Shown here piece by piece: positions 1 through 7,330 of a stretch of 7,330 bases of DNA. The notes under the pieces are model-generated. The model had not been told where the DNA came from. It saw only the letters and a program-made list of their open reading frames with translations, and ran no database searches. The position numbers were made by a program, and so were the translations under genes. Origin of the DNA: Amoebophrya sp. A120 (lineage: Eukaryota > Protista > Dinoflagellata). The stretch covers positions 6,011 through 13,340 of the forward strand of contig CAJINV010000068.1 in assembly GCA_905178155.1 (NCBI GenBank), written 5' to 3'. Each line of letters opens with the position of its first letter. The first letter of the stretch is position 1.

Positions 1-787
1 TGTCTGGCTGTCCGCACCCGGGCCCGCGCCTTGTTTGTCCGAACCTGCATGGTCCGCGACTTCCCCTCCTTTGCCCTCATCTTGCGAGGGAGCGCTCGGC
101 ACTTCAGCGCCTCCTTCTTGCTGTTTTGCTTCCTGCCCTTGCGACAACCCTAGGCACTCATCCAGGTACAAAGTGCGTTTCGTGCGGTTCATCTTCGGCC
201 AATCGCGGACAGGAGGGAATTTATACGTGTCCGCGCCGAACTCATAGACAGGCCACGTGGTGTAGCAGTTGTCACGTTGCGCGACGTTGACTATTTGCAG
301 TGGAACTGTATGCACCGGGAGTGATGCACCAACTGGCATGAAGTCCTTTTGGTGGCTCGGAAGTACTTCTTTGCGAACTTCGTATCCCAGGGCCTGCGCT
401 CCTTCTAGTGCTTCTGCCAGGCTTAGCACTATGCCGCGACCCTGCCTGAGTGGACCGCGGGCATTCGCCTGCAGCCTCTTGAAGTCAGAGAGCTCCACAC
501 CTACTTTCCGAACCCCATGGCTGTGCTGCGTGACAAGTTGCAGCAACGTGAGCGCGTTGTTGACATAAGCCAGAAATCTCCGCTCTTGTCGGCGAACTTC
601 TACCCTCAGACGTTCCATCTTCGTTTTGCACTGCGCGAACACATTCCCTGTGTTTCTCTCAACGCAGACTGTCGCTGACAAATCCGAGGACGCCCGGACC
701 TCATATACGGGCAGCCCCGGTGGCATCCTGCCTCGCCCCAAAGTGCGATCCTTGACAAAGCCCGCAACTCTAAGTGCACCCCTTTGC
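1..787 (-). CDS. Exon running off the window edge (QRGALRVAGFVKDR...KMERLRVEVRRQERRFLAYVNNALTLLQ...GPGADSQT)
   Basis: Minus frame is stop-free from 855 to base 1. It is absent from the ORF track because it has no stop in the window. The exon's 5' boundary (~782-790) is uncertain. Confidence 0.75.
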
Positions 788-3700
788 CTACCTAGCATGA
801 CAGACATGCTTTGAGTGCCCGGAAAATTTCTCATGCGCCGACTAGAAATGGCACTTCAACTGGAGTTGTTTTTTGCATTACAAATCATTTCCACTTTGAG
901 GATTTCCAACCTGAGGCTGTCATACTCGGTCTTCGCGTTTTTCATCCCGGACATATCGAAAGGAAAAACTCCCCCTCCCCATATCGAACAAAAGGCATGT
1001 TTCCGAAAATTTGCGTTGCTGATTTGACGTCACAAATCATATCTGTCTTGCAAGAAGACAAGGGCAAAAGCTTCGCCCCCATCATGGAAGCGATTTGCCA
1101 TGCTGTTGGGCCTAAAGGGCAGCCGTTTGCCATGCTGAACAATTAAACCGATACGCCCCTACATAGCCTGGGGATCTGGCCGCAGCGCATTCCTGCAATA
1201 CGAAGCTGATTTGTGTACACAAATCCAGCATGAGAAATTTCGTTTCGATATGGGGAGGGGGGATTTTTCCTCTCGATAGGACACGTCGCCGACGCTGAAC
1301 ATGATGCTGCCTTCTTCTGCACTGTTTTATGCATTGCAAAAGCATCGCACTAGTATAAATTGCAATACAAACTTCCTTAGCATGAGAAATGGAATTTGTC
1401 ATGCGGATTTGCCTTGATGAAAACATTTGTAATGCAAGACTTGCATTTATACGAGTACGATACTTTTGCACAGGATATGTTTAGGAGTGACGCGATTTCG
1501 CCTTTGATTGCTTCTGCATCCTCCGCGCGGGGTTTGCCCTTGGGACGCGACACCCCTCGTGTCCTGAGTAAAAACGTACCCACACCAGAGTCAAGATGGG
1601 GACTTTGCAACACAAGCCTAGACCTTTTGGAGGTCACGCATCACAAGTTGCAGCCCGTAGCGTAGTGCAGGTTCGCAAGGCCAGCTGCATCAGAAATCCA
1701 TCTGCTCATCCTGTTTACAGCAGTACAAATTACAAAACACGACTAAAAATGCCTCTCCTGGCGATGCGCATTACAAATGTTCCTGTCATTGCAAATCTGC
1801 ATGACAACTCTGGTGTGGGTACGTTTTTACTCAGGATACCTCGCAAGTCATACACCCTCCTTTCCGCTTCAGCGACGATCTTCGCGTAGACTTTCCCCTC
1901 TACTTTTCCCCGCTCGATCGCTTCTTTAACTAGCTTTTGCACCACCGCGACCTTTGTCTCCTTCAAACGCTGCGCGAATGCTTCTGGGGATACCAAAGTG
2001 AAAAATCCCCCCACCCCATACTCAAACTAGAGCTTCGCGATGCAGATTTGTGGTCACAAATCAGCTTTGTCATGCTAGAAGGGAAAAGATGCGGACTGTA
2101 GTGCTGGTTGGCGTGGGAAAGCCTTGCATCTTCAGCATGACAGGGGGCAGCTGGAAGTGGGAAGCAGCATGACAAATTGCCTGCAACCAAGGCCACAGGT
2201 GCGTCTCGTCTTGGCCTTCTAGCATTACAAGTCGATTTGTGTACTCAACAAATACAGCATCACAAATTTCGTTTTCGATATGGGGAGGGGGGATTTCTCC
2301 TTTTGATAGGGGAGAGGGGCTCCTCTTGCTGTAGTTTCGCGCCGGTTTCATCATGCTCCCCTTCAGCAGGTTCTTTTTCGCTCCTCTTCGTGTACGGTTC
2401 CATTTGCAGGCTGTCCGCGAAGAAAGGGATGCCGTCGATCTCAAATTGATCCATAATGGCTTTGTCTTCCGCTTCCGCGTCCGTGAGGGCAGGATTTCTT
2501 TTTTGCAGAGCATCCGCCGCAGACATAATTTTGTCAATCTTCTTCTCAAGATCTTCTTCATCTTCATCATCGCCTCCACCCTCTGCTAACGAGGACAGAG
2601 CTTCATACCGGTTGCGTATCTCCGTGGTCGGATCGAGGGACAAGCTCCGGCGTTTGTTCGCGGGCCTGCTGGTGCTTCGTCCCCGCCGTTTCGCGTGCCC
2701 CTGTCCACCCCGGGAGGTAGTTCTACTCCTTCTTGGCGCGCCGCCGCGGCCCTCATCCACCCGAGGGGACGAGGTAGCTCTACTCCTTCTTGTTCTTGGC
2801 GCATCTCCGCTGTGTGATCGTGCCCGATCGGGAGCTGCAGCAGGTTCCACAGCACCAGGACGGAGTCGCGACAGCCGCTCCGCAGCCTCCTGGCTCGGAC
2901 TTCTCTGCATCACAGAAAAGCCTGCGTGTTGTTCTCTCTTGACTTGCCTCACTTCTCCAGTAGCTTGCGCTTTCAACTTTTCCAGCGCTTTCCTTCTTTC
3001 ATCTATGGAGGCGCCGGGATCGAAATCGACAAAGTTGAAGTTGCAAGAATAAACAAATAATGGCTTAGGCTTTCCATGCATAAAATTGATGCTGATGAAG
3101 ACTTGGAAGCTGCCCAGTTTCGTTTGCATTTGCTCGTGCAAGCGGCGCATGACAAATTGAAATTTCGGCATCATCGAAATCCAGTTTGTGTGCTGTAAGG
3201 ATGACAAGACATGATCATGATCTTGTTTTGCCTTGCTACAACTTTTTTAGCAGCTCCATCTCTAACCCAAACAGGCTTACAGTCGGCCTCGCTTGTTGTT
3301 GCTGACACCCCTGCAAGACAGGCACCTTGCGCAGGAGCACCATTGCGTTTGATGATCTTATGCAGTCCATTCTTTTCCAACTTGACCTTTGTCGATTTCG
3401 GTTCTGACGCTTCCATACCCTCTTGCAACCGTGTACTGGTGGTCGGATTTGCCCTTCGCAGCAAGCTGTCCTCCGGGCCACCGGCCCCGTCCGTTTGTAA
3501 GTCAATAACTATGCGGCCAGTAGTTTTAGACATCAATGGATGGTCCTTTTCAGTGGCAGAGCTGCTCTCGAACCACGCAGGCACAGCAGTTTCCAGGGTC
3601 AGCGTTTGGGGCGAAATCCAATACTTCACGTCGCGGGCCATGCAGATCTGCTGCTTGATACGGTTGCGACGGCTTATTTGCAGCGCTGCAGCAGCTGCGC

Positions 3701-6700
3701 GTTGTGGTGCAACAACTTCCGATGTTCTACTTGTTGGTCGAGGTTGTGGCGGGGGAGCCGGCACGCTTGGACAACATTCGCCACAACCAGCCGCTCCACA
3801 AGAATGATCTTCCTTTTTCTGTCCGTACGCAGCGGCAAGCGATCCCAAACGACCAGCTCCGCCTCCAGCCGTGGCAGCTGCGCCGGGATGAAGTAGAGCC
3901 TTTTGCTTTGTCATCTCGAAGAAATCGCCATCCTTCGTAGCGCAAGAGTCCACGCTAGTACTACCTTGTGCGAAGTCATGCACTCCATAGAGCGGGCTCG
4001 CGATCTTGATCTTGTACCCTCCTAGTACGACGTCGGAGGAGGTACTACCGCCTGTAGTAACACGACGACCGGTATGGATTGTAAAAGTGTCTGGGTCTGG
4101 AAGTAGAATGCAACTTGTCATGCTAAATCTGAATCATGTAAAAAATCTGTGTTGCATGATTACCAAGAGCTGTCCACTTTTGACCTAGTCGAGAGGCAGT
4201 TTCTCATGCAGGATAGGCATGATAGAACTCTCCGAGAATCTGTCATGCTCTGTCCTACATACCAGACCTCAGGGGTCATGTACGATCTGCATGACAAGTC
4301 TGGCATTCTTCCAGAGGAGGACCCAGACATTTTTACACTTGATAACCCGTAGCTCCCCACCCAGCATGTTTTGCCGCCCAATTCGACGCCACGAAACGCA
4401 TCTGTATCAAACAAAAAAGCGCTAACCACGTTAACGGCCTTCTTACATTGCAAATATGCATGACAAATTTTTCCGAGCATGCATGCTCTGCATGACAAAT
4501 TCGGCCACGTTTTGTGACGCATTTCTGCATCACAAATTCCGTTAACGTTAGCACTTTTTTCTGTGATAATCTGGCACAGCACGCAAGGGTTCTTGCTGAC
4601 ATAGATTTTATTCTCGAAAAAAGAAGAAGTTGTTGCACTACTGACCACTGGTGGAAGTTGTTGTTGTGCTTCTTTATGAGCTGGTACAGCTTGTTTTTGG
4701 TGTAGTAGCTTCCACTCCATGAGATGAAGCAAATTCGTTTCCGCGTGTCGGCCTCTGAGAGTTTTGTCCGTCATACCCCCATATCAAATGTAAAAATGTC
4801 TGAGTCTGGAAGATTGCCAGGTTTGTCATGCACATTTTGCATGACTCCTGATGTCTGTGATGCATGCCCTAGCGTCACAGATTTTGTGAGGGCTTCCTGA
4901 TGCCTATACCGCATGACAAATGCTCTTTCCGAGTAGCAAAACTTGGACTCTCTTTGCTGCTCATGCAATACAGAATTTTTTGGAATCCAAAATCAGCATG
5001 ACAAGTTGGATTCTTCCAGACCCAGACATTTTTACATTTGATACCCCACGCTCCTGCTTGTCCACGTCCACGCGGACGAATTGAAGAGAAGCGACCTGTA
5101 TCAAATGCAAATGTGTCTGGGTCTGGAAATTTGTGATGCTGGGTGGCGTATCATGAGGAGGCCACAAGTGCTGGCGCAGCTAGCAGGACAAGTTTCTGAG
5201 CTTCTGGGTGTTCTTGCCTATTCTGCATGGCAAGCTGCGTTTCTGCGTGACAGAAGAGGAGGCTCTTGGGTAACGTGCATGACAGATGTAAGAGCCATAC
5301 CAGACAAGCATGACAAGCATCAACATGCATTCTTCCAGACCCAGAACTAAAAATATGCATTTCATAACCTTCTCCTGGATGAATCTCGCCACGAGGCTCT
5401 TTTTTGCCTTCCTGTCCTCGTCGTCCTCGGTTTCGGCTAAGAAAGCCTTCAACCCGTCCGACAAGGGTTCGACATCGAAGATTTCAGATATGACGGCGCA
5501 CTAGAAGTACCACCCTGCTCCCCCTCATTTTTTCTTTTCCACGCATGAAGAACAACAGCGAATTAATATACAAGAACAAAAGCACAAGCTGCACACGCGC
5601 AGCCTGTAACTGACAAGTTCTTCACGCGCCTCGCACAGAGGGACTGTAGTCCTAGTAGCCTTTTTGGGCTTCCGGAATAAAATCTGTCACGCAAACAATG
5701 AATAAGTACTACAAGGCAGCGCGACCGCGACCAGTGGATTTGGGAACTTGCACCATGACGAAGTCGAAGGTATGAGGGGGAGCAGGGGGACGAGTTGTGC
5801 ACTGTCATATGATAAGAGCTTAAAACCGGAAGAAGAAACGGATCAGCATCTCCACCATGATCTACTTATGCATTGCAAATATTATGTCTGCCTCCCTCTG
5901 GAAAATCTAAATTGTGGCTGTGCTGCTAAATTGATACTTAGGTACTTATGGATGACGATGAGTCTGGTGCTTTCCTTTCAACAGGTGCAGCTAAGCATGA
6001 CAAGTTCATTTGACGCCGTCTGATGCGTTGGGTATGCAACACAAGTTTTCAGAAAAGTAAACTAGACACGACATGCAAGACAAAGAACTACTCCACTTTT
6101 ATTGCAGACGACCCAGTAGTAGACGCATAAATGTATTTGCATTCGATACAGGAGCTTGACCAACAGTAGAAATAACACCTCCAACTCCGCGGCCTTGATT
6201 TGATGTATTTATTCCACGAGGACCTCTACCAGGAACAGTATCAAGAACAAAGCTTGCCTCCAAAACCGCTTTTAAACAAGCGCTGACCGCTTTTTTCGCT
6301 GTGTTCACGAACCGCTCATGTTCGTAACGATCGATCGGAACGCTTTCGAATGCTCCTGTCCGCTTTGTCGTCGCGTCGAAATCCCGCGCGTAGAAGGCGG
6401 TCTCCCGTAGCTGTTTAGTACGCCCCAGTTCTTCAAAGAAAACATCGCTCTCCTTGAAGGGTACCCGCGCTACACTCCCGGGAAGAAATACAGTCCGCAC
6501 CGGGGATGACGTGGCCATCGAGGACTTCTCTTTCTTGTAAGTACGGAACTTGGCTCTCAACAAGTCCCGACGGTCCTGCCAGGAGGGAGGGCGGGGGGGC
6601 GCGCCTGCTGAGCCTATGGACTGCAAATATTTATGTTGTCCGGGTCTGGGGTATTGTGATGTGGATTTTTGGACATTGTTTATGCGAACGCGTGGTCCTG

Positions 6701-7107
6701 AATTGGCGGCCAAGCATGTTGACCAAAAGTTTCATTTCAGTTGCTACGTGTTGCCTCTTCTGCATGGTATAATGCAAGCATCCATTCTGCATCTTCCATG
6801 ACAAAAAAAACAAAAAGGGCTTGATCGATGGGATGGAAATGGAATAATAATAAAAAGGTAAAAATACAAATAATAAACGAATGCATGTTGACAGACTTGA
6901 GAGTCATGCTCCAGCTGCTGGCACCAGAGAATTACGACTGACTACAAGCGTCCTTCTTGCACTCTTCCAAATGACCAATACATCATATTTGCAATGCGTA
7001 GAGCCGCCGGCGGTGCCTCCTCCTCGGTCCACACGCTTCTGTATCAGTAAGTTCGAGTTGAACGCGATAAGCAGTCGGCTGTTGTTGACATGATGTGGAG
7101 GGTTCAG
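1..7107 (-). CDS. Large multi-exon gene, partial at both ends (~1161 aa reconstructed from 14 exons), with a putative Zn-dependent cytidine/adenosine-deaminase-superfamily domain
   Basis: Model exons: 7107-7001, 6609-6149, 5861-5810, 5483-5367, 5093-5044, 4776-4569, 4399-4345, 4067-3418, 2998-2309, 1985-1839, 1554-1478, 1322-1279, 948-911, 787-1. They total 3483 nt with no stop. Removed lengths 391, 287, 326, 273, 267, 169, 277, 419, 323, 284, 155 and 330 nt each convert the upstream open frame into the downstream one. Junctions can slide within the 5-bp DRs, and the last intron is uncertain. Confidence 0.85.
789..931. mobile_element. Degenerate introner-like TIR element / intron
   Basis: Left arm TACCTAGCATGACAG (789) vs reverse complement of right arm GACCGAGTATGACAG (931). 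Motif variants at 795, 828 and 875. The DR is decayed (TTGCC/TTCGC). It contains the in-frame TGA at 858-856 that must be removed. Confidence 0.5.
911..948 (-). CDS. Micro-exon GMKNA(KTEYDSL)
   Basis: In frame after removal of element 954-1278. The 3' end is 911 if GT-AG intron 788-910 is used, or ~932 if the whole degenerate element is removed. Confidence 0.5.
954..1278. mobile_element. Introner/MITE family A, copy 1 (325 bp)
   Basis: ~35-bp TIR TATCGAAAGGAAAAACTCCCCCTCCCCATATCGAA vs TATCGAGAGGAAAAATCCCCCCTCCCCATATCGAA. Perfect DR GGACA at 949-953 and 1279-1283. Removing 330 nt gives FSVGDVS|GMKNA. Confidence 0.92.
1279..1322 (-). CDS. Exon SAEEGSIMFSVGDVS
   Basis: Open in the frame dictated by both flanking element excisions. 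Confidence 0.75.
1328..1477. mobile_element. Introner/MITE (150 bp)
   Basis: TIR TATGCATTGCAAAAGCATCGCACTAGTATAAA vs TATCCTGTGCAAAAGTATCGTACTCGTATAAA. Perfect DR TGTTT at 1323-1327 and 1478-1482. Removing 155 nt gives IASLLN|SAEEGS. Confidence 0.88.
1478..1554 (-). CDS. Exon VSRPKGKPRAEDAEAIKGEIASLLN
   Basis: Core of ORF 1377..1637. In frame with both neighbours after excision. Confidence 0.8.
1560..1838. mobile_element. Introner/MITE family B, copy 1 (279 bp)
   Basis: Perfect 30-bp inverted repeat 1562-1591 / 1807-1836 (TCCTGAGTAAAAACGTACCCACACCAGAGT). Perfect DR CCTCG at 1555-1559 and 1839-1843. The 284-nt removal can be read as GT-AG intron 1839->1556 and gives YDLRG|VSRPK. Confidence 0.95.
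1839..1985 (-). CDS. Exon EAFAQRLKETKVAVVQKLVKEAIERGKVEGKVYAKIVAEAERRVYDLRG
   Basis: Protein-like, helical-looking core of ORF 1730..2014. In frame with both neighbours. Confidence 0.85.
1991..2308. mobile_element. Introner/MITE family A, copy 2 (318 bp)
   Basis: TIR TACCAAAGTGAAAAATCCCCCCACCCCATA vs TATCAAAAGGAGAAATCCCCCCTCCCCATA. Perfect DR GGGGA at 1986-1990 and 2309-2313. The interior resembles 954-1278. Removing 323 nt gives EEPLSP|EAFAQ. Confidence 0.92.
2309..2998 (-). CDS. Exon: charged, low-complexity region (R/S-rich basic tract, then acidic GGGDDEDEED tract)
   Basis: Part of the 315-aa ORF 2260..3207 lying between two elements. Confidence 0.85.
2704..2810. repeat. Imperfect intra-exon tandem duplication (2 units, ~50 bp)
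   Basis: GAGGTAGTTCTACTCCTTCTTGGCGC (2714-2739) vs GAGGTAGCTCTACTCCTTCTTGTTCTTGGCGC (2771-2802), each preceded by TCCACCC. They encode APRRSRTTS / APRTRRSRATS. Confidence 0.75.
3004..3417. mobile_element. Introner/MITE (414 bp)
   Basis: ~40-47-bp TIR TATGGAGGCGCCGGGATCGAAATCGACAAAGTTGAAGTTG vs TATGGAAGCGTCAGAACCGAAATCGACAAAGGTCAAGTTG. Decayed DR TCATC/CCCTC. Removing 419 nt, or GT-AG intron 3418->3003 (416 nt), joins TRLQE to RRKALEK in frame. Confidence 0.85.
3418..4067 (-). CDS. Exon RRVTTGG...KIKIASPLYGVHDF...HSCGAAGCGECC...TTSTRLQE
   Basis: Core of the 316-aa ORF 3171..4121 between two elements. Confidence 0.85.
4073..4344. mobile_element. Introner/MITE family C, copy 1 (272 bp)
   Basis: TIR TATGGATTGTAAAAGTGTCTGGGTC vs TATCAAGTGTAAAAATGTCTGGGTC. 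DR ACCGG/ACCCG (4 of 5). Removing 277 nt gives GWGATG|RRVTT. Confidence 0.9.
4345..4399 (-). CDS. Exon RFVASNWAAKHAGWGATG
   Basis: In frame with both neighbours after excision. Confidence 0.78.
4405..4568. mobile_element. Introner/MITE (164 bp)
   Basis: TIR TATCAAACAAAAAAGCGCTAAC(CAC)GTTAACGG vs TATCACAGAAAAAAGTGCTAACGTTAACGG. Perfect DR ATCTG at 4400-4404 and 4569-4573. Removing 169 nt gives PCVLCQM|RFVAS. Confidence 0.92.
4569..4776 (-). CDS. Exon with deaminase zinc-binding motifs: GRHAETNLL...KIYVSKNPCVLC
   Basis: HAE at 4747-4739 and PCVLC at 4588-4574 with a 50-aa spacer. This is the HxE...PCxxC signature of the cytidine-deaminase-like superfamily. Confidence 0.8.
4782..5043. mobile_element. 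Introner/MITE family C, copy 2 (262 bp)
   Basis: 32-bp TIR TATCAAATGTAAAAATGTCTG(A/G)GTCTGGAAGA with one mismatch. Perfect DR CCCCA at 4777-4781 and 5044-5048. Removing 267 nt gives DKQERG|GMTDK. Confidence 0.95.
5044..5093 (-). CDS. Exon ASLQFVRVDVDKQERG
   Basis: In frame with both neighbours after excision. Confidence 0.8.
5099..5366. mobile_element. Introner/MITE family C, copy 3 (268 bp)
   Basis: TIR TATCAAATGCAAATGTG-TCTGGGTCTGGAA vs TATGAAATGCATATTTTTAGTTCTGGGTCTGGAA. DR ACCTG/ACCTT. The 273-nt removal reads as GT-AG intron 5368->5096 and gives IQEKV|ASLQF. Confidence 0.9.
5367..5483 (-). CDS. Exon IFDVEPLSDGLKAFLAETEDDEDRKAKKSLVARFIQEKV
   Basis: Frame of ORF 5180..5464 extended upstream to the element boundary. 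Confidence 0.82.
5489..5809. mobile_element. Introner/MITE (321 bp)
   Basis: TIR TATGACGGCGCAC...CCCTGCTCCCCCTCAT vs TATGACAGTGCAC...CCCTGCTCCCCCTCAT, with a perfect 16-bp inner stem 5513-5528 / 5772-5787. Decayed DR TCAGA/TGATA. Removing 326 nt is in frame, and so is GT-AG intron 5802->5501 (302 nt). Confidence 0.8.
5810..5861 (-). CDS. Exon DHGGDADPFLLPVLSSY
   Basis: Open in the frame required by both flanking excisions. Confidence 0.65.
5867..6148. mobile_element. Diverged introner/MITE, family-C-like (282 bp)
   Basis: TIR TATGCATTGCAAATA-TTATG vs TATCGAATGCAAATACATTTATG. GCATGACAA at 5995. The DR is essentially lost (CTACT/CAGGA). Removing 287 or 284 nt joins ORF 6099..6713 to the next exon in frame. 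Confidence 0.62.
6149..6609 (-). CDS. Exon AGAPPRPPSWQDRRDLLRAKF...ERFVNTAKKAVSACLKAVLE...VGQAP
   Basis: Core of the 204-aa ORF 6099..6713 between two elements. Confidence 0.85.
6615..7000. mobile_element. Introner/MITE, family-C-like (386 bp)
   Basis: TIR TATGGACTGCAAATAT vs TACGCATTGCAAATAT. Perfect DR GAGCC at 6610-6614 and 7001-7005. The 391-nt removal can be read as GC-AG intron 7004->6614 and gives GTAGGS|AGAPP. Confidence 0.88.
7001..7107 (-). CDS. Exon LNPPHHVNNSRLLIAFNSNLLIQKRVDRGGGTAGGS
   Basis: Core of ORF 6904..7131. In frame with the downstream exon after excision. Confidence 0.8.
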
Positions 7108-7330
7108 TATCCTGAGTAAAAACGTACCCACACCAGAGTCAAGATGGGAAATCTGCTAGACAAATCGGCAAGCTTTGGGAGTTGTGCATGACAAGTTTCC
7201 GTCTGTAGTATAGTGGTGCATAGCAAGGCAAGCCGCATGAGAAAGCCAATTTCTCATCCTGTTTACAGCATTACAAATGCCAAATCACGATTGGAAATAC
7301 CTCTCATGAGGATGCGCATTACAAATGTTC
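7108..7330. mobile_element. Introner/MITE family B, copy 2 (truncated by window edge)
   Basis: Collinear with 1560-1782 at offset 5548, and the first 41 nt match at 40 positions. The preceding 5-mer TTCAG (7103-7107) is the candidate DR. Confidence 0.92.

Follow-up and report, generated by a model that had tools for sequence, protein, structure and literature searches.

Locus and reading frame

We analyzed a window of 7,330 nucleotides (the whole stretch, coordinates 1..7330) on contig CAJINV010000068.1 of the dinoflagellate Amoebophrya sp. A120, in which a host gene on the minus strand is interrupted by elements bounded by terminal inverted repeats (TIRs). Twelve complete inverted-repeat elements of 150–414 bp lie in the window and two more run past its ends, which agrees with the 14 transposon-like introns counted in an earlier note made from this DNA sequence. 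The elements belong to a published class, the non-canonical introner elements (IEs) of Amoebophrya sp. A120 (Farhat 2021, PMC7789003, cited here from part of the paper); the earlier note had named the same class, and the phenomenon is already published for A120. Four of the 14 listed sequencing runs were examined (X1, X3, X6 and X12); X1 is DNA-like by content, and X3 is RNA by guess, with contigs at depth 5–8. The gene and the elements, the latter given without strand and named below by their first position, are as follows; "repeat" is the identity of the flanking 5-bp direct repeats.

926..7103, minus strand: protein-coding gene, of which 13 exons lie in the window if cut at the inferred register (frame test, X3 contigs, match to protein CAD7975469.1)
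7103-7002, 6610-6150, 5862-5811, 5484-5368, 5094-5045, 4777-4570, 4400-4346, minus strand: exons 1–7 of the gene
4068-3419, 2999-2310, 1986-1840, 1555-1479, 1323-1280, 949-926, minus strand: exons 8–13 of the gene
954..1278: introner, 325 bp; repeat 5/5; shares its family with 1991-2308; junction present in CAD7975469.1
1328..1477: introner, 150 bp; repeat 5/5; junction present in CAD7975469.1
1560..1838: introner, 279 bp; repeat 5/5; sole GT..AG among the 12 at the inferred register; junction present in CAD7975469.1
1991..2308: introner, 318 bp; repeat 5/5; frame forced; junction present in CAD7975469.1
3004..3417: introner, 414 bp; repeat 3/5; join directly seen in X3; cut after repeat base 3 or 4 allowed
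4073..4344: introner, 272 bp; repeat 4/5; inverted relative to its relatives 4782 and 5099; supported by the reading frame only
4405..4568: introner, 164 bp; repeat 5/5; supported by the reading frame; the piece of X3 record 14 stops at 4569
4782..5043: introner, 262 bp; repeat 5/5; high-copy family; within the span of X3 record 14
5099..5366: introner, 268 bp; repeat 4/5; within the span of X3 record 14
5489..5809: introner, 321 bp; repeat 3/5; within the span of X3 record 14
5867..6148: introner, 282 bp; repeat 1/5, still removed in frame; cut after repeat base 4 or 5 allowed
6615..7000: introner, 386 bp; repeat 5/5; X3 covers the flanking bins and has depth 0 in the bin inside
7108..7330: element 14, truncated at the window end; belongs to the family of 1560-1838

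The ends read TA..TA in 11 of the 12 complete elements, the exception being 1560 with TG at its plus-left end, and TAT was read at 21 of the 24 ends. The flanking 5-bp repeats were identical at all five positions in seven elements, at four in two, at three in two and at one in a single element (5867); i.e., a border direct repeat of at least 3/5 identity accompanies 11/12. Beside 5867, positions 5862-5866 and 6149-6153 agree at 1/5 while the TIR is still clear, possibly reflecting an in-frame deletion next to the element.

The earlier note had claimed that excision of each element plus 5 bp restores a continuous frame, and this held at all 12 complete elements: the excision gave 891 stop-free codons on the minus strand, with removed lengths in all three mod-3 classes (3, 3 and 6 elements), as had been stated. 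Excising the element +0, 1, 3, 4, 6, 7 or 9 left 10–21 stops in the best frame; +2 and +8 give the same frame as +5. Considering each of the 12 junctions separately, 216 of 531,441 frame combinations were stop-free, and shifting one junction alone brought stops in 23 of 24 trials. The constraint is uneven: at three junctions only the +5 class keeps the frame open, at three others two classes do so, and the remaining six are constrained only through sums, in keeping with the caution of the earlier note that the shortest exons are weaker tests.

Identity of the gene

Exon 1841-1990 matched one protein only, CAD7975469.1 of Amoebophrya sp. A120, at 100% identity, so that the syndinian lineage guessed from the letters was correct. 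Residues 1-221 of this protein map onto exons 2679-925 with a 100% match, following the predicted joins at four junctions, and residues 1-220 are an exact substring of the reconstructed protein; the comparison with A120 proteins that the earlier note had proposed thus came out in its favor. CAD7975469.1 is not fully independent support, because RNA data of a similar kind may underlie the annotation. Past 925, it continues for 44 further residues that are not encoded in the window. The gene therefore runs on beyond the window at its 3' end, and its coding part amounts to at least 935 codons including this 44-residue tail; the protein of more than 1100 aa that had been proposed was too long, as the window holds 891 codons and the open reading frame (ORF) at 1-855 is intronic. 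The gene is apparently kept in the public collection as at least two separate proteins, one labelled partial, which both come from a 13,340-base contig.

The first Met of the reconstruction stands at codon 65. Two frames are open in exon 7002-7103, which lacks a Met; this exon may belong to the 5' untranslated region, or the gene start may lie beyond element 14. The reconstructed protein is largely low-complexity. A search of representative proteins with exon 6150-6614 returned only the own protein and one other (P0003), which was rejected as a relative because its match is a repeat-inflated chance one. A protein atlas gave no usable match for the gene or for the ORF at 1-855, and nothing usable came from the PDB sequence search, PHROGs, NCBIfam, viral contigs or Rfam. 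We read the locus as one gene that matches Amoebophrya sp. A120 and is likely expressed.

Transcript and DNA contigs over the elements

X3 record 12 joins 3419 to 2999, a skip of 419 that equals 414+5. X3 record 14 spans 6418 to 4569, and the 219 bases between its two listed pieces equal the 219 exon bases predicted over four introns. X3 depth was 0 in the bin inside the low-copy element 6615-7000 and 0.03 inside 5867-6148, with the flanking exon bins covered. In X1, the stretches 2280-4099 and 5774-7132 are covered by unspliced contigs of single-copy depth (41–45), equal to that in exon-only bins; over most elements X1 depth lies in the thousands or more, up to ~10^5–10^6, vs 41–58 on exons. 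X6 yielded short pieces only and is uninformative, and the raw RNA of X12 matched element parts only, at 90–95%, which says nothing about the gene. In X12, RNA with the same species label, 67 reads at 4781 and 5043 pass from the end of a related element into that element's own flank, which marks a copy left unspliced in a transcript.

Hairpins with direct repeats on both sides are classic substrates for template-switch artefacts. Reverse transcriptase could accordingly have produced the joins by switching template at the short repeats, across the hairpin between them, and the locus could be a pseudogene riddled with miniature inverted-repeat transposable elements (MITEs); the abundance of element-derived contigs in X3 and X6 and the lack of an orthologue among those searched for would suit this explanation. 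However, element 5867 is removed in frame at 1/5 repeat identity, and X3 depth falls to 0 and 0.03 inside 6615-7000 and 5867-6148 between covered exon bins, which argues against template switching. A pseudogene would also have to keep 891 codons open while its TIRs and repeats decay, and to retain the intact HxE and PCxxC motifs described below. We regard this explanation as very improbable.

Elements bounded by TA with inverted repeats and precise removal also resemble the internal eliminated sequences of ciliates. Excision from DNA at some life stage would make the joined contigs edited DNA, and the nature of X3 is not on record. However, the X1 contigs keep the elements at exon-only depth; as rare variants do not survive into contigs, a form confined to one stage is conceivable. 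DNA-level excision has, to our mind, scarcely any likelihood, and it is disfavored together with template switching. Removal of the elements from a transcript is the reading that we carry forward.

Cut register and predicted hairpin

Perfect repeats hide the position of the cut; the diverged repeats at 3004 and 5867 reveal it. A cut after repeat base 3 or 4 would fit record 12, and one after base 4 or 5 would fit record 14, so that the two share base 4 only. We infer that, if one rule holds, the intron comprises the element together with 1 nt ahead of its first TIR and 4 nt behind its second, with the form N+TAT…ATA+NNNN. At this register all 12 donors read N+T (GT 4, CT 3, TT 3, AT 2), and the acceptors are free. 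GT-AG occurs in 1/12 introns at register 4 (1560) and in one different intron at register 3; the other 11/12 at register 4 are non GT-AG, and the window introns do not follow the GT-AG pattern of U2 spliceosomal introns. All nine predominant non-canonical splice types of A120 have T at +2 (GT, CT, AT, TT) in Table S4 of the Farhat paper (PMC7789003). Element 5867, removed in frame at 1/5 repeat identity, implies that the repeat itself is not needed.

In the predicted folds, all 12 introns pair 15–25 of their first 25 nt with the intron end. The predicted stem starts at position 2 in 6/12, and z was −4 or lower in 10/12 (30 shuffles each).

The same introns and the same +5 outcome would arise if the cut slid within the repeat, or if a hairpin-reading, non-spliceosomal endonuclease and a ligase did the work, as proposed for the non-canonical introns of euglenids and diplonemids. 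Splice sites called variable and U1 undetected in the portion of Farhat cited (PMC7789003) would fit, as would the nearly free donor and acceptor letters and the diplonemid non-canonical introns, which pair their ends by a mechanism left open in the account cited. However, both informative junctions give one register, and the Table S4 types all carry T at +2; these observations speak against sliding and are silent on which enzyme cuts. We consider this alternative unlikely and retain a fixed register in what follows.

Elements in a second assembly

A TIR pattern search returned at least 135 loci, all in assembly JACKZZ01, which may not be the same strain as A120. A TIR-only search of these loci gave at least 192 distinct elements; TAT ends were required, so three positions are shared by construction. 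Among the 192 listed elements, an exact 5-bp repeat was present in 146 and a 4/5 repeat in 26; exact 3-, 4- and 6-bp repeats were present in 2, 2 and 0. For the 135 of the 192 listed elements with enough flank, the longest spanning frame was obtained with +5 alone in 60, +4 in 29 and +6 in 19, with 27 ties (p 2e-6). In the 150-bp family, an inner TAT..ATA inverted repeat without a 5-bp repeat occurs at L067:248-372 and L115:628-746; such repeats inflate the failures among the 192 listed elements. A tblastn match of L011 (E 0.009) was treated as chance.

With one mismatch allowed, the subterminal motif GCATGACAA was found in 191/192 listed elements vs ~10 in shuffles, often 30–50 bases from an end, and it is common to several element families. 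In the window it occurs in 13/14 elements, 5489 being without it, and 0 times in 2742 exon bases. We considered GCATGACAA as a branch site and rejected this as unlikely: the spliced introns 4405, 3004, 1560, 5867 and 6615 carry only an antisense copy, and 5489 carries none. Element positions 11–15 are mostly A.

Orientation was assigned to 67 of the 192 listed elements by a crude composition score. Donor +1 tracked the exon base composition in these 67 (GT 20, AT 19, CT 16, TT 12), and GT-AG occurred in 2/67. Among the listed loci, the family of 4782 lies both ways relative to the host gene, 16 vs 3, apparently with a bias.

Proposed mechanism and its weight

We propose that a DNA transposase, likely of one family, would bind the shared ends and the subterminal motif and insert the elements with a 5-bp target duplication; the shared TAT…AAAA ends, the motif GCATGACAA and the single repeat length point to one such family. 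In the RNA, the TIRs would pair into a long stem, and the splicing machine would cut 1 nt upstream of this stem and 4 nt downstream of it. The 1+4 overhang has the length of the 5-bp duplication, so that an insertion of either orientation, with almost any flank, would be excised scarlessly. The T at +2 would be supplied by the TIR. Since this T is fixed, U1 is reported as undetected and the stem offers a landmark, a modified spliceosome is the most likely predicted cutter.

Several observations weigh against this proposal. The register comes from two junctions and the assumption of one rule, and Farhat, in the part cited, describes splice sites as variable relative to the hairpin and borders as variable or unknown (PMC7789003). 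The folds of the old introns 5867 and 6615 were no better than shuffles (z −0.7 and −1.2), and the predicted stem of 4073 begins at position 9. The earlier note had proposed a check of its junctions in RNA, which stood in part: the 3004-3417 join was seen and the four-intron span agreed by its exon total, but in X3, itself only guessed to be RNA, no join was seen at 4073, 4405 or 6615. In the second assembly, 48/135 listed elements favored +4 or +6, so that the frame test is modest, and an AG acceptor was slightly enriched (10/67, p 0.036). No orthologue of the gene was found in homolog searches with exon 3420-4070 among longer proteins, which is weak evidence, and no transposase was found in the window.

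Weighing these points, we hold with good confidence that the locus is one likely expressed gene whose introns are inverted-repeat elements with 5-bp duplications, likely removed at a fixed distance from a predicted terminal hairpin. The wider proposal, that A120 possesses a structural ruler in which a U1-less machine takes its measure from the hairpin, cutting 1 nt ahead of it and 4 nt behind it, so that hundreds of families could insert at nearly any site of a gene, whichever way round, at no cost, stands in our estimate at even chances.

The finding as first stated is a rediscovery, and its value lies in the rule. If true, a fixed 1+4 register and one 5-bp duplication length would supersede the borders called "variable, unknown" in Farhat 2021, and U1-less intron removal would become directly testable. 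Gene finders could then repair A120 gene models with the rule; this gene seems to be split into partial proteins.

Deaminase-like exon

The reconstruction exposes a likely deaminase domain, judged from sequence motifs that stand in one exon of the gene.

4570..4777, minus strand: zinc-deaminase-like exon; HxE (4747) and PCxxC (4588) are separated by 53 aa

The motif definitions HxE and PCxxC are those of zinc deaminases, and the OTT_1508 clade is reported from apicomplexans (PMC3239186, in the part cited). The loose HxE...PCxxC motif occurred in 0.66% of 5000 shuffles. Pfam gave sub-threshold matches of exon 4570-4777 to OTT_1508_deam (E 0.0085) and APOBEC_N (E 0.024); the OTT_1508 profile scored 16.5 bits vs a cutoff of 27 with one exon only of a domain that spans several exons. 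The GxxK before CxxC is incomplete, with the K present and Y in place of G. A zinc deaminase domain in the protein is thus likely and unproven.

Element 13 and its open reading frame

The element at the window start is long and contains an open frame.

1..924: element 13, a long intron truncated at the window start, at least 924 bp in length; its high-copy end lies at ~772-924, and its interior is of lower copy number
1..855, minus strand: 285-codon open frame within element 13, still open where the window begins; according to CAD7975469.1 it is no exon of the gene

No significant partner TIR for the element end at 924 was found within the window (score 20 vs shuffle mean 19.6). Because the tail of CAD7975469.1 is absent from the window and 1-850 holds no significant partner TIR, ORF 1-855 is not the next exon. 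X3 record 10 extends 359 bases past 1839, of which the next three exons would account for 145. Two other outlines were rejected: a short element at 704-924 has no significant TIR partner, and its +5 removal leaves ORF 1-702 out of frame; a decayed element at 245-567 scored 22, below the shuffle 95th percentile of 24.

Over 1-735, neither X3 nor X6 gave any depth; X1 depth of 115–233 indicates several copies, with a 91% paralogue. At positions 111, 277 and 706, every X1 contig placed there differs from the window letter, so these contigs are probably paralogous copies of the intron interior. The GC content of ORF 1-855 by codon position is coding-like (0.67/0.44/0.60). Sequence, Pfam, PDB and further library searches found no homolog, the negative from the search with ORF 1-702 among longer proteins being weak evidence, and a single-sequence structure model of 130-702 reached a predicted local distance difference test (pLDDT) score of 33. 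ORF 1-855, the only window ORF that could be examined for a hAT transposase, gave no transposase hit. It is multi-copy, apparently untranscribed and inside a long introner; it could be a captured gene piece or a candidate mobiliser. We see a slim chance that long ORF-bearing members such as element 13 include the missing mobiliser.

Comparison with known systems

The termini of hAT transposons read YA..TR. The window elements share the 5-bp target duplication of hAT5 DNA transposons (PMC12730594, in the part cited); the assignment to hAT5 is a lead only. Non-canonical introns of euglenids, diplonemids and Fritillaria share base-paired ends, flanking repeats and a probable MITE origin; however, the euglenid pairing at +4..6 and −8..−6 and the preferred Fritillaria ends AG-AC/AT are both unlike the window introns, as far as these are described in the parts of the sources cited (PMC11282704, PMC12621601).

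The introners of Micromonas, Aureococcus and Polarella/Symbiodinium share TIRs with a target duplication and a splice site derived from the duplication, and some work both ways (PMC11282704; bioRxiv 10.1101/2020.10.14.339549); class 12 of Polarella even has a 5-nt duplication, like the window elements. According to the portions cited, those introners keep a GT/GC/GA donor and an AG acceptor and need a matching target, whereas here the acceptor and donor +1 are nearly free.

The A120 introners of Gozashti et al. 2025 (PMC12130899) share tens of introner introns per gene and some long TIR-flanked elements with ORFs (family 38); the ORF of element 13 shows no detected similarity to any known family, within the part of that paper cited. 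No paper giving a fixed register or a cross-family motif for A120 was found in the literature searched; figures, subscription papers and the Gozashti datasets lie outside that scope, and the figures and datasets may already show the register.

The closest system is that of Farhat 2021 (PMC7789003), whose cited part describes A120 IEs with inverted repeats that start TAT, followed by ~7 variable bases and a run of A, and that form hairpins. Their direct repeats are 3–5 nt long (5 bp in Fig. S19) and their ends non GT-AG; the mean length is ~240 nt, 29,850 repeated introns are counted in A120, and neither U1 nor a transposase is reported as found there. The window shows the same features, namely an A120-type genome, TAT with an A run, a border repeat, genome-wide repetition and non GT-AG removal from RNA (X3 being RNA by guess). 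There is no difference in kind between the window elements and those IEs, and the strain is the same by protein identity. What we add to the part of that account cited is the single 5-bp repeat length, the inferred fixed 1+4 register and the subterminal motif shared across families.

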